Positions 8,470-14,949 of a stretch of 64,000 nt of DNA are shown in pieces. Each line of letters opens with the position of its first letter. Position 1 is the stretch's first letter. This DNA is from a virus. The DNA lies in the IMG/VR virus record IMGVR_UViG_3300008952_003529, one strand, 5' to 3'. Under the pieces are notes generated by a model, which saw nothing but the letters and a program-made list of their open reading frames with translations, was not told where the DNA came from and made no database searches. The position numbers and the translations under genes are program-made.

Positions 8470-8898
8470 ATGTTAGGAAAAGATTTTATGGGCGCCGGAT
8501 TTTTCATAGTCAATCCTTCTTCAAATCTCTTGCTAGCGCTTGTCGATAATAATGGGTTATATGATTTTCCTAAGGGTACGAAAGACAAAGAAGAACAACC
8601 ACTAGAAACTGCCCGACGGGAATGCTTCGAAGAGTGCTCTATCCTCATAGAAGAAGATGAGCTAATGAATTGTGGACCATTTTTTGATGGCAAATTATTT
8701 TTGTTTTGTGCTGAAACTGAAAAGCATCCAGCAATATTACGAAATGCAAAATCTGGTATCATAGAACATTCAGGATATGCATGGGTTAAACCTGAAGAAT
8801 TTTTGGCTAAGTGTGTACCATATCTCCAACCCATCACCAAGAAAATCTTCTTAGAGCTATCAAAGCGTGCACATCCCTTAGTCGCAAGTTATATTTAA
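8470..8898 (+). CDS. Nudix hydrolase (Ap4A-hydrolase-like)
   Basis: DFPKGTKDKEEQPLETARRECFEE Nudix box. Confidence 0.85.
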   Translation: MLGKDFMGAGFFIVNPSSNLLLALVDNNGLYDFPKGTKDKEEQPLETARRECFEECSILIEEDELMNCGPFFDGKLFLFCAETEKHPAILRNAKSGIIEHSGYAWVKPEEFLAKCVPYLQPITKKIFLELSKRAHPLVASYI

Positions 8899-8923
8899 AT
8901 TAGAGAACTAGATGCTAAGGATG
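8872..8923 (+). promoter_or_regulatory. RBS-masking inverted repeat with ATATTTA in the loop
   Basis: catcccttag (8872-8881) pairs with ctaaggatg (8915-8923) with one bulge and covers SD AAGGA; ATATTTA at 8891-8897. Confidence 0.55.
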
Positions 8924-8924
8924 A

Positions 8925-10109
8925 ATGATGTCAATTTTCCAAAGACATAAAACGGTCGCTGATCGCTCCGCTGGGGACCGTGCGAGGCATCGAAAGAAAA
9001 TCGAGAGAGCCATCAAAGATGGCATCTATAATATTGTTGCTGAAGAATCGATTATTGGGAAAGAGGGAAAGAAAAAATTTCGTATTCCTGTACGAGGAAT
9101 TAAAGAGTATCGATTTGTATACGGTGATAACGGTTCAAGAAGAGTAGGCTCTGCTCAAGGGAAAGATGTTAAGCGCGGGCAGGTGATTGGCAAAAAAGAA
9201 GAAAAAGGGCAAGGGCAAGGAAATCAGGCTGGTCAAGAAAAGGGAGAAGAGTATTACGAGGTAGAGCTTACGCTTGATCAACTTGCAGAATATCTTTTTA
9301 AAGATCTAAAGCTCCCTAATTTTGAAAAGAAAAAGAACACTAATGTCACATCTAAAAAAATAAAAAGACACGGGTATAGAACAAAGGGAATTCGGCCGAG
9401 GCTTGATAAAAAGAAGACAGTGATTGAAAAGCTAAAAAGAAAGAACAAGCGAAAGCTGATCATGTCACAACCTGAGTTAAATGAGGATGTTGACGAAACA
9501 AATGAATTTCCTTTTAATGAGAAAGATTTACGATATCGTCACTACAAGGTTCATGAAAAGAAAACGTCTAGTGCCGTTATATTCTTTTTAATGGACATTT
9601 CTGGATCTATGACAAGACAAAAGAAGTTTTTAGCAAGAAGCTTTTTCTTTTTGTTATACCATTTTATAAGGGCAAGGTATGACCAAGTGGACCTGGTGTT
9701 TATTGCTCACGATGTTGAGGCTCATGAAGTAACAGAAGACCAATTTTTTGGACGTGGATCATCGGGTGGAACATTGGTTTCTAGCGCATTAACAATGACT
9801 GAGGAGATTATTTCAAAAAGATATCACCCAAATAGCTGGAACATCTATGCATTTCAATGCTCTGACGGTGACAACTGGCCGACCGATAATGAAAGAGCAA
9901 TCGAACTAGCAAAGAAAATAGTTCAAAAAGCACAATTCTTTGGGTATTGTCAGATCGAGCCCAGTGAAGAAAGAGCTAGCTTCATCCGTGAAAATTCTTT
10001 ATCAGAAATATACGCACCGTTGATAGGTCCAAACTTTAAGGTAGCAGAGGTTTCTAGCAAGGAGCATATCTGGCCAGCTTTTAGATCATTCTTTGGGGGT
10101 GAATTATGA
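8925..10109 (+). CDS. yeaH: YeaH/YhbH (DUF444, UPF0229) vWA-domain protein
   Basis: DRSAGDRARHR, FRIPVRGIKEYRFVYG, LMDISGSM, HDVEA.EV, GGTLVSS, SDGDNW. Confidence 0.92.
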   Translation: MMSIFQRHKTVADRSAGDRARHRKKIERAIKDGIYNIVAEESIIGKEGKKKFRIPVRGIKEYRFVYGDNGSRRVGSAQGKDVKRGQVIGKKEEKGQGQGNQAGQEKGEEYYEVELTLDQLAEYLFKDLKLPNFEKKKNTNVTSKKIKRHGYRTKGIRPRLDKKKTVIEKLKRKNKRKLIMSQPELNEDVDETNEFPFNEKDLRYRHYKVHEKKTSSAVIFFLMDISGSMTRQKKFLARSFFFLLYHFIRARYDQVDLVFIAHDVEAHEVTEDQFFGRGSSGGTLVSSALTMTEEIISKRYHPNSWNIYAFQCSDGDNWPTDNERAIELAKKIVQKAQFFGYCQIEPSEERASFIRENSLSEIYAPLIGPNFKVAEVSSKEHIWPAFRSFFGGEL

Positions 10110-13355: not shown

Positions 13356-13609
13356 TGTTAAGATTTGGATTTAGCGAAGCGTTGCTTATGTTTGCTGGAA
13401 TTGCTTTATGGCATAACCAAATGTTTGCAATAATCGCATTTTGTATGGCTTGCTTTGTTGCATTCGCAAGATTTTCGCTAGAGTGGTCGCTAAAGTCTAA
13501 AGAAACCGAAGCGAAGGTGCAGGCCTCAAAGCTATTAAATGAGCAAGTTCAAGAAGTCGGTGATGTACTTGGGACTATGTTCGGTAAAAAGAAATCCACG
13601 ATGCACTGA
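13355..13609 (+). CDS. Small two-TM membrane protein
   Basis: Two hydrophobic N-terminal segments and a charged C-tail; ATG overlaps the prkA stop. Confidence 0.65.
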   Translation: MLRFGFSEALLMFAGIALWHNQMFAIIAFCMACFVAFARFSLEWSLKSKETEAKVQASKLLNEQVQEVGDVLGTMFGKKKSTMH

Positions 13610-13617
13610 GATGTACA

Positions 13618-14949
13618 ATGAGACACTACGCCTCAGTATACTCAGGTGACGAAGCAAAAAAAATAACTCGGGACGCTCGACAGGCTATACGTGATGTAAT
13701 TCAAAGCTTGCAATCTTGGGAAAGCTCCATGATAGTTGGGAAAAGGCTTTATACCTTCGGTTGGCCTGATTCTTTTCGACTCTTGATAGAGGGGCTTGAT
13801 AATTGTCCTTTAGTGTATAGAAACCTCGTTCTTAATTCAGCAGAGGCCGTTTATCGACGATGTCCATTAGCGGTATCGCTTTATCTTATCACTTTGGAAA
13901 AAATGCTAGCAGGCCGACTTGCTGATGCTGCTCAGTTACAAGAGACAATAGATCAGCTGGTGATTAATCGAAGAAGGATATCGTCTAAGGAAGCAAAAAG
14001 CGCTTGGCGAAAGACAATACATGATGACTTTACTCGCGAAATATTTGAAGATTTATCATCTGCTGTCGATAAGACTGGAGCGCTCGGAACAATAGAGGTC
14101 AAAGGAGGCAGATATTCTAATGTTGAAATATACGAAGGCATTTCTGTTGCTGCTAAGCTAGCGCCGGCTTTTCAATCTCAAGTTGCAGGAATAATTCACT
14201 TAACAGACTGTAAGGTTGTGATTGTTGATGGAGCAATTCTTGACATTAGTGAATTAAATAGATTGCTTGTTTACGCTAACGAGAGTAAATCAAGCATTGC
14301 AATTTTTGCTTCGCAATTCTCAGATGATATATTAAATACCCTGATCGTTAATTGGAACAACGGACGTCTCAAGGCAGTTCCAATAATCTTTGAAAGTACC
14401 CTGAACGATCTTAATCAACCTGGAGATGTTGCAACAGTCGTAGGAGGAAGGTTAATATCAAAAGATTGTGAATATTCCATAACACTCCTTAACGAGGAAG
14501 AGTTACCCACTATCAAAAGCATAACTGTGAACAATATTTCGAAAAAATGTGATCTAATTTTAGATTCTGATGGTTTGTCTAGGGCATTTTTTCTAAGAAA
14601 TGAAATTCAAAAAAAGCGTGAAAAAGAAAAGATAGAAGATGTCAAGAATATCCTGAGCGCAAGACTAGCGAAACTAACAAGTAGAAAAACTATTATAACG
14701 ATTAAATGCGATATTGAAGAATCTGGAATTGTTAAAGATAGAATTTCCGACTTATTTTCTTTTATAAAATGTTGTGCAAATGAGAGCATAGTTTCTGGAG
14801 CTTCAATCTATTCAGCGGTAGAACAACAAGACACAAGCGGTCTTCCAGCTTTCTTACCCGCTTTTTCTGCAAAAATTGCCATTTTTAAAGCGATCGCAGA
14901 TGCTGAGCAGATAAACAAAATTGGAGCGCTAATACTGATGGATTATTGA
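13618..14949 (+). CDS. Degenerate GroEL/Cpn60-like protein lacking ATP-binding motifs
   Basis: Collinear similarity to GroEL (AVDKTGALGTIEV, EIYEG, DVATVVGGRLIS, ARLAKL, KDRISD, ESIVSG); GPKG and GDGTTT are absent. Confidence 0.8.
   Translation: MRHYASVYSGDEAKKITRDARQAIRDVIQSLQSWESSMIVGKRLYTFGWPDSFRLLIEGLDNCPLVYRNLVLNSAEAVYRRCPLAVSLYLITLEKMLAGRLADAAQLQETIDQLVINRRRISSKEAKSAWRKTIHDDFTREIFEDLSSAVDKTGALGTIEVKGGRYSNVEIYEGISVAAKLAPAFQSQVAGIIHLTDCKVVIVDGAILDISELNRLLVYANESKSSIAIFASQFSDDILNTLIVNWNNGRLKAVPIIFESTLNDLNQPGDVATVVGGRLISKDCEYSITLLNEEELPTIKSITVNNISKKCDLILDSDGLSRAFFLRNEIQKKREKEKIEDVKNILSARLAKLTSRKTIITIKCDIEESGIVKDRISDLFSFIKCCANESIVSGASIYSAVEQQDTSGLPAFLPAFSAKIAIFKAIADAEQINKIGALILMDY

Follow-up and report, generated by a model that had tools for sequence, protein, structure and literature searches.

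The first 64 kb of a 75,178-bp viral contig from IMG/VR (record IMGVR_UViG_3300008952_003529; CheckV completeness 21%), which is the whole stretch analysed and is called here the window, carry three adjacent genes homologous to yeaH, spoVR and prkA. Our preferred reading, to which we give a probability of about 0.45, is that this trio is a phage copy of the bulk-proteolysis program known from E. coli YeaG (SpdA), and that it would recycle host protein for virion synthesis. What speaks for it is the family membership of the three proteins, their intact motifs, the conservation of PrkA, the repeated capture of the whole trio by phages and a late-type motif upstream. What the genes are, their motifs and conservation, the phylogeny, the synteny and the distribution of the promoter-like motif were observed directly, whereas the activity, targets and timing of the phage trio are inferred. 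Complete relatives with terminal repeats measure 293-298 kb, so the window phage is a jumbo phage; its structural genes are T4-like, as shown by a baseplate wedge gene within the window and, in a relative, by genes for portal, sheath and gp23-like capsid proteins.

By sequence comparison, the trio proteins are unambiguous members of known families (Table 1). The two Pfam scores of PrkA, 437 and 259 bits, stand against gathering cut-offs of 25, and the protein matches PDB entry 9xip ('serine protein kinase') at 1e-86, together with weak sequence matches to Lon. The PrkA query returned 173 viral loci, of which 80 were kept as relatives (identity 67-86%). Over 100 protein clusters share at least 73% identity with it, and many of these come from Tara Oceans. 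A megablast of the locus against the phage collection gave no match, and no viral loci were found when protein P0127 served as the locus query. Many proteins 1000-1570 amino acids long, among them P0128, P0130, P0132, P0160, P0163 and P0169, align at 35-40% identity with the last two thirds of PrkA and may therefore be fusions.

The Walker A motif GPVGAGKS (PrkA residues 117-124) is identical in 77 of the 80 relatives and reads GPVGSGKS in the other three, and the metal-ion-dependent adhesion site (MIDAS) DISGS (YeaH residues 224-228) is kept as D[VITR]SGS in 75 of 76. The original prediction, made on the window alone, had described both motifs as intact, and this extends to essentially all 80 relatives. 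The three genes are co-directional and in the order yeaH-spoVR-prkA in every one of the 80. No gene of the neighbourhood is more conserved than prkA, with a median identity to the window protein of 71%, as against 55-56% for YeaH and SpoVR (YeaH 55%); helicase, PhoH, YeaH and SpoVR together span 51-57%. It had also been stated that five genes, the trio followed by a small membrane protein gene and a GroEL-like gene, are spaced by 13 nt or less. The open reading frame (ORF) coordinates agree: the first two genes overlap by 4 nt, 13 nt separate the second from the third, the third and fourth overlap by 1 nt, and 8 nt lie between the fourth and the fifth. The packed string of genes begins before yeaH, with genes for phosphomannomutase, helicase, nucleotidyltransferase and nudix separated by gaps of at most 40 nt.

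The function of the bacterial module has recently become clearer. E. coli YeaG, renamed SpdA, is needed for the non-specific breakdown of cytoplasmic proteins in starving cells, which thereby obtain amino acids and ATP to make new proteins (Manzanarez et al., PNAS, October 2026; PMC13684143). The cofitness data of Price et al., with r>0.7 in six species, place the three bacterial genes in a single pathway, and B. subtilis PrkA was reported as an ATP-dependent, Lon-like protease. Under the preferred reading, the ancestor of a marine jumbo-phage clade would have acquired a Clostridia/Binatia-type cellular module once; the module would then have been cyclically permuted to yeaH-spoVR-prkA and held since under strong purifying selection. 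The phage itself would switch on bulk degradation of host cytoplasmic proteins to release amino acids and ATP, and a late-type promoter with the motif ATAyTTA would time this proteolysis to the production of a large virion in a nutrient-poor host. PrkA would perform ATP-driven unfolding or proteolysis, YeaH, a vWA/MIDAS protein, would be the adaptor, and SpoVR, with its zincin-like predicted fold and HxxxH motif, may be a hydrolytic or regulatory subunit. As a particle with a genome of 290 kb has to be built in an oligotrophic host, a phage would benefit from running the proteolysis program itself.

The phylogeny of PrkA fits a long residence in the phage lineage. The nearest cellular loci, with PrkA identities of 53-57%, belong to Clostridium and other Bacillota, Binatia, Thermodesulfobacteriota and Acidobacteriota. 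In the PrkA tree the marine phage clade is monophyletic (SH-aLRT 99) and stands beside, not inside, the Bacillota and Binatia-type clades; nesting in one host clade, which had been named as an outcome that would count against the original prediction, is excluded, and with it a recent transfer from host to phage. The placement of prkA last in the trio, pointed out earlier as unusual, was also verified: cellular loci have prkA-yeaH-spoVR in 73 of 80 cases and the phage order in none. Other phages carry the trio elsewhere in the tree. Thermus phages TMA/phiYS40, phiLo, MN1 and Lalka8/27a share the permuted order but lie on a long branch of their own. In Ralstonia phage RsoM2USA, 600-kb uncultured phages and several IMG/VR contigs the genes follow the bacterial order and the sequences are YeaG-type, and one further trio (L088) is nested in Bacillota. 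These tree positions show that the trio was captured whole at least four times, namely by the marine clade, the Thermus phages, the YeaG-type group and L088, and the link to a GroEL-like gene is specific to one of these lineages.

Two records bear on this history. In a contig from a metagenome-assembled genome (MAG) labelled as Saccharibacteria (L136, positions 6920-13900) the order is prkA-yeaH-spoVR-prkA, the second prkA encoding 663 amino acids, and this arrangement is a plausible duplication intermediate for the cyclic permutation. The 305,838-bp sequence NHDW01000006.1, deposited as 'MAG: Methylococcaceae bacterium TMED69', has a PrkA 73% identical to that of the window and the same gene order (helicase, nucleotidyltransferase, nudix, yeaH, spoVR, prkA, pseudo-GroEL, o154, phoH). 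Its PrkA falls within the phage clade, and the deposit is thus almost certainly the genome of a jumbo phage that was binned wrongly.

The timing of the trio was approached through the element upstream of yeaH. The original prediction had placed ATATTTA, set in a hairpin, ahead of both the trio operon and a fibre operon. The motif is indeed present upstream of the trio and again at 18012-18018, 23 nt before the next large operon, and its placement is not random. A hairpin around it is weak where it occurs (two sites, z -1.5 and -2.0) and missing at two other sites, so that a motif in a hairpin was rejected as a general feature. The raw count of ATATTTA in the window, 12 against 17.6 expected, is no excess over chance. 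On the plus strand, four of eight ATAyTTA sites lie 23-35 nt upstream of starts, compared with 3.6% of positions; these starts are those of ORF 201, of the phosphomannomutase gene at 5479, of yeaH and of ORF 18035. Many relatives have ATAyTTA 10-35 nt upstream of yeaH within otherwise unalike intergenic sequence.

G003 is a relative with a complete genome; upstream of its ORFs, ribosome-binding sites aside, no 7-mer is more enriched than ATATTTA (7.9-fold). It precedes the genes for portal and tail sheath, the gene leading two gp23-like capsid genes, two genes whose products match only weakly a gp19-like tube and a gp25-like baseplate protein, and the nucleotidyltransferase gene just upstream of the G003 trio. 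The carriers are 7 of 34 ORFs in the structural region at 150-200 kb, whereas the first 50 kb have 1 among 97; a search of G003 for DNA_pol_B gave no match, and replication genes were therefore unusable as a negative control for the motif. The T4-type late promoter sequence TATAAATA, which occupies -10 of late genes, does not occur ahead of yeaH and is very rare ahead of G003 ORFs. There is good sequence evidence that ATAyTTA is a clade-specific late promoter, which would imply late transcription of the trio; thus late expression, as had been claimed, is plausible. No terminator lies between nudix and yeaH, and read-through from upstream is possible.

The predicted fold of SpoVR resembles catalytic domains of zincin peptidases. 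Its invariant residues are H106-x3-H110-x-D112, E154, E252, H259 and H280. The AlphaFold2 (AF2) model, with a predicted local distance difference test (pLDDT) score of 88, aligns in VIA-align with M1, M3, M4 and M32 peptidases at Z 8-9.5 over 165-210 residues (rmsd 3.4-4.5), and the top 50 matches are nearly all catalytic domains of zincin peptidases, at Z values that are common for helical models. Foldseek matched the model to nothing in the PDB, a sequence search turned up no solved structure for the SpoVR family, and the sequence matched no peptidase family, not even as a weak Pfam peptidase signal. The HxxxH spacing is that of HExxH, but position 107 is Cys or Val in 41 of 41 sequences. 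A relationship of SpoVR to these peptidases is suggested, not established.

Several points weigh against phage-run bulk proteolysis. In SpoVR the glutamate needed for catalysis by HExxH is missing, and for a helical protein the fold match is only middling. The study of SpdA does not address YeaH or YcgB (PMC13684143). For PrkA of B. anthracis, both protease and kinase activity were negligible in vitro (PMC13001217), so that the biochemistry of the family is unsettled. In E. coli the process takes hours, degrading a few percent in each, and may be too slow unless the latent period is long. Regarding timing, Lalka27a is the only trio-bearing phage with RNA-seq, and its genes 12-16 (vWA, SpoVR-like, PrkA and two small genes) have their own promoter between late portal/head genes and TerL and are middle-class, not late; this is an independent lineage. 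Moreover, in a derived sub-clade of the marine phages (L043, L044, L046, L047, L055, L058 and L059) ATAyTTA is replaced by TAyTTATAAT, containing a perfect TATAAT, 10-20 nt before yeaH, and timing may therefore differ between lineages.

The fifth gene of the string had been called GroEL-like, and phmmer, AF2 and Foldseek all confirm this identity. The protein has no Pfam or PHROG match, Cpn60_TCP1 being absent even at E<=10 and unmatched in the phage's own record as well, and the canonical Cpn60 copies of relatives score 184-242 bits to that family. In phmmer, its residues 107-397 align with residues 124-417 of GroEL from the PDB at 1.5e-11; the AF2 model built with 46 homologues has a pLDDT of 91, and Foldseek matches it to GroEL/Hsp60 at about 1e-23 over the whole chain, giving a three-domain chaperonin fold. 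An alignment with E. coli GroEL shows that the window protein has lost the ATP-site motifs TLGP 30-33, D52, GDGTTT 86-91, ISAN, D398, GGG 414-416 and D495 by replacement or deletion, as have the short homologues, 40 of 40; five homologues of 540 amino acids, from a sister sub-clade, keep every one. About 100 equatorial residues, corresponding to E. coli GroEL 105-118, 416-452, 462-486 and the C-terminal tail 528-548, are missing from the short forms. The apical domain is conserved, and F204 and L237 of the apical groove are kept. The protein is a predicted ATPase-dead paralogue of the canonical Cpn60 of the clade, for which the earlier name 'pseudo-GroEL' is accurate. Its median identity to the window protein is 22%, compared with 71% for PrkA and 41% for o154, and it evolves about three times faster than the trio.

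A hidden Markov model of the short chaperonins placed pseudo-GroEL directly 3' of prkA in about 57 of the 80 relatives, with an occasional insert of 0.6-1.8 kb. In whole-record searches, the relatives with an adjacent pseudo-GroEL also encode one canonical Cpn60 of 530-541 amino acids far off, about 186 kb from the trio in G003. The arrangement differs in the derived sub-clade (L043, L047, L057, L063 and others), where the trio ends its transcription block, the canonical Cpn60 lies about 3-7 kb upstream of it, and pseudo-GroEL is 135-150 kb away in the order pseudo-GroEL, o154, o86, helicase, PhoH. Because this sub-clade is nested within the phage clade in the PrkA tree, the adjacency of prkA and pseudo-GroEL is ancestral and was lost once; it is dispensable, and pseudo-GroEL belongs with o154-o86. 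The distance of 3-7 kb between trio and Cpn60 is seen on either strand, as in L100 (G007:C1:145741-157000), L043, L055 and L059. The proximity of a chaperonin in both arrangements is not accounted for by the explanations tested; a local duplication history is a possibility. In a 361,490-bp genome classed as 'provirus' and 97% complete (L054/G006) the trio is present and neither Cpn60 nor pseudo-GroEL is detectable.

The downstream partner o154 has eight invariant residues (H6, C10, C12, H26, C47, C50, H54 and C60) and probably binds zinc. Neither o154 nor o86 matched a family in Pfam or PHROGs, and the Atlas search was uninformative. A role of o154/o86 as a GroES-like co-chaperonin was rejected, as o154 carries the invariant Cys/His metal site, and no GroES/gp31-like partner was recognised at a genome coverage of 21%.

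These results bear directly on the proposal of the original prediction that the trio and pseudo-GroEL form one late machine for virion folding or assembly, a MoxR-vWA-type chaperone with a chaperonin-fold holder. The late-type motif upstream of the trio would suit such a machine, as would the ancestral adjacency to prkA kept in about 57 of 80 relatives, the relocated trio about 5 kb from the canonical Cpn60 in the derived sub-clade, and the position of the Lalka trio between the portal/minor head protein and TerL genes. However, the presumed holder has no ATP site, evolves faster than its supposed partners, and stays with o154-o86 when the trio is 135-150 kb off. No chaperonin was found within 8-10 kb of the trio in Thermus phages, RsoM2USA, the 600-kb phages, the YeaG-type IMG/VR contigs or L088, and none of 73 cellular trio loci has a GroEL-like neighbour. 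In Lalka27a, genes 12-14 are middle-class and their products are absent from the virion protein list, although this list is short, lacks the portal too and says little. The cellular orthologues, 55% identical, function in cells that produce no virions. As pseudo-GroEL is separable from the trio, and absent near other trios, functional coupling is unsupported: the synteny that had been predicted exists within the clade and fails in the derived sub-clade, in other phages and in cells. No test outcome points to a role of the trio in virion assembly, the YeaG/SpdA literature points to bulk proteolysis, and we consider the assembly machine quite unlikely.

An alternative closer to the preferred reading is that the phage trio overrides or blocks the decision of the host for starvation or dormancy, instead of feeding synthesis; it might, for instance, hold a starved cell in a metabolically competent state or stop the host from escaping infection through dormancy. 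In bacteria the module is linked to starvation for nitrogen and carbon, to stationary phase and to sporulation. It has been acquired repeatedly by large phages whose hosts are oligotrophic or grow slowly, and two of its neighbours here, a PIN-PhoH fusion and nudix, are associated with starvation and common in marine phages. A takeover function would be expected early, and a late-type promoter is odd for it; no regulatory target is known, and this alternative, which we hold to be unlikely, overlaps largely with proteolysis and is hard to separate from it by sequence. A further alternative is that PrkA is a Ser/Thr kinase that, with YeaH and SpoVR, would phosphorylate host metabolic enzymes and re-route metabolism. 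Kinase activity was historically ascribed to YeaG, the module was once proposed as a signalling pathway, and yeaG mutants are reported to differ in the phosphorylation of GlyA, AceA and others. Nevertheless, kinase activity was not detected for PrkA of B. subtilis or of B. anthracis (the latter in PMC13001217), and PrkA is an AAA+ ATPase similar to Lon and RuvB, which makes a signalling kinase very improbable. Returning to phage-run proteolysis, its most specific form would be a late-expressed three-part machine resembling a split FtsH, with PrkA as AAA+ motor, YeaH as vWA adaptor and SpoVR as zincin-like subunit, the mini-chaperonin being a passive holder of substrates or a shield for phage proteins; in this detail we regard it as doubtful. 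If true, such liquidation of the host proteome would be the protein counterpart of phage-driven recycling of host DNA.

Table 1. Features of the trio locus, in window coordinates.
Feature	Position	Strand	Details
Upstream element with ATATTTA, candidate clade-specific late promoter	8872-8924 (motif 8891-8897)	+	34 nt before yeaH
yeaH/yhbH homologue (DUF444, vWA-type)	8925-10109	+	394 amino acids; Pfam DUF444 1.9e-114, 383 bits
spoVR/ycgB homologue	10106-11413	+	435 amino acids; Pfam SpoVR 1.1e-114, 384 bits; SpoVR_C 39.7 bits
prkA/yeaG (spdA) homologue	11427-13355	+	642 amino acids; AAA_PrkA 5e-131 and PrkA C-domain 7e-77
84-amino-acid protein, two predicted membrane helices	13355-13609	+	hydrophobic stretches at about residues 3-19 and 22-40
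pseudo-GroEL, group I chaperonin fold	13618-14949	+	443 amino acids
o154 and o86, constant downstream partners of pseudo-GroEL	15307-16028	+	synteny including the rearranged sub-clade
Terminator-like hairpin, strong	16257-16281	+	first one 3' of the gene string

The small membrane protein between PrkA and pseudo-GroEL had no family match in Pfam or PHROGs, and tblastn detected homologues only in the closest relatives (L002, L003, L004 and L071). Generic scans of the window for sigma-70 promoters and terminators gave no excess over shuffled sequences. Downstream of the locus, a fusion of a PIN domain with PhoH (16692-17999, 435 amino acids) is conserved across the clade, and the large proteins that follow the locus had no Pfam or PHROG match. 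The regions 5479-8463 and 27668-47904 contain the phosphomannomutase gene, a cytidylyltransferase-like nucleotidyltransferase gene and a long run of glycosyltransferase-like genes, which point to a sizeable capacity of the window phage for sugar-nucleotide synthesis and glycosylation. In G003, the gp23-like major capsid genes are tandem paralogues encoding 632 and 629 amino acids (G003:C1:176269-180150).

Compared with known systems, the phage trio is closest to the Clostridia/Binatia-type cellular operon, with which it shares the three Pfam families, similar lengths, a full-length PrkA at 53-57% identity and intact motifs; it differs from that operon in its permuted order, its GroEL-like neighbour and its own branch in the tree. 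The YeaG(SpdA)/YeaH/YcgB set of E. coli comprises the same three families acting together and is the only member with a defined physiological role. However, it is only about 30% identical, and its genes are split in two operons under RpoS control, whereas the phage copy is of the Clostridia/Binatia subtype and lies behind a late-type motif. The trios of Thermus phages (phiYS40/TMA, phiLo, MN1 and Lalka8/27a) are likewise phage-borne and in the order yeaH-spoVR-prkA, but with about 30% PrkA identity, a separate long-branched clade and no chaperonin nearby, they are probably an independent acquisition. With the AAA+ proteases FtsH and Lon the trio would share an AAA+ module and, from the SpoVR fold match, a putative peptidase; in contrast to them, it consists of separate chains joined by a vWA protein, its HxxxH lacks the catalytic Glu, and a proteolytic chamber is putative. 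Pseudo-GroEL has the GroEL fold, with apical, intermediate and equatorial domains, in common with the jumbo-phage chaperonins EL gp146 of Pseudomonas and AR9 of Bacillus (PMC7185714, PMC9598537) and with the 530-550-amino-acid Cpn60 of the clade. Unlike these, it is shortened to 443 amino acids, has lost the ATP-site motifs and falls below the Pfam Cpn60 threshold.

Phage copies of these genes had already been annotated in GenBank, as 'SpoVR' and 'serine kinase' in Thermus phages, and in RsoM2USA (PMC8504454). New with respect to the literature consulted are the finding that the marine clade is so large and so conserved, its cyclically permuted gene order, the promoter of late type, and pseudo-GroEL as a separable paralogue. 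This ATPase-dead mini-chaperonin is a separate curiosity, a large and fast-evolving family that coexists with a normal phage chaperonin. The PrkA/YeaH/SpoVR module is among the most widespread of the poorly understood bacterial systems, its first clear role having been published in October 2026, and the phage trios offer compact, self-contained versions of the machine for biochemistry. That a very abundant clade of marine jumbo phages keeps the trio among its most conserved genes suggests that recycling of the host proteome may be a viral strategy in nutrient-poor hosts.

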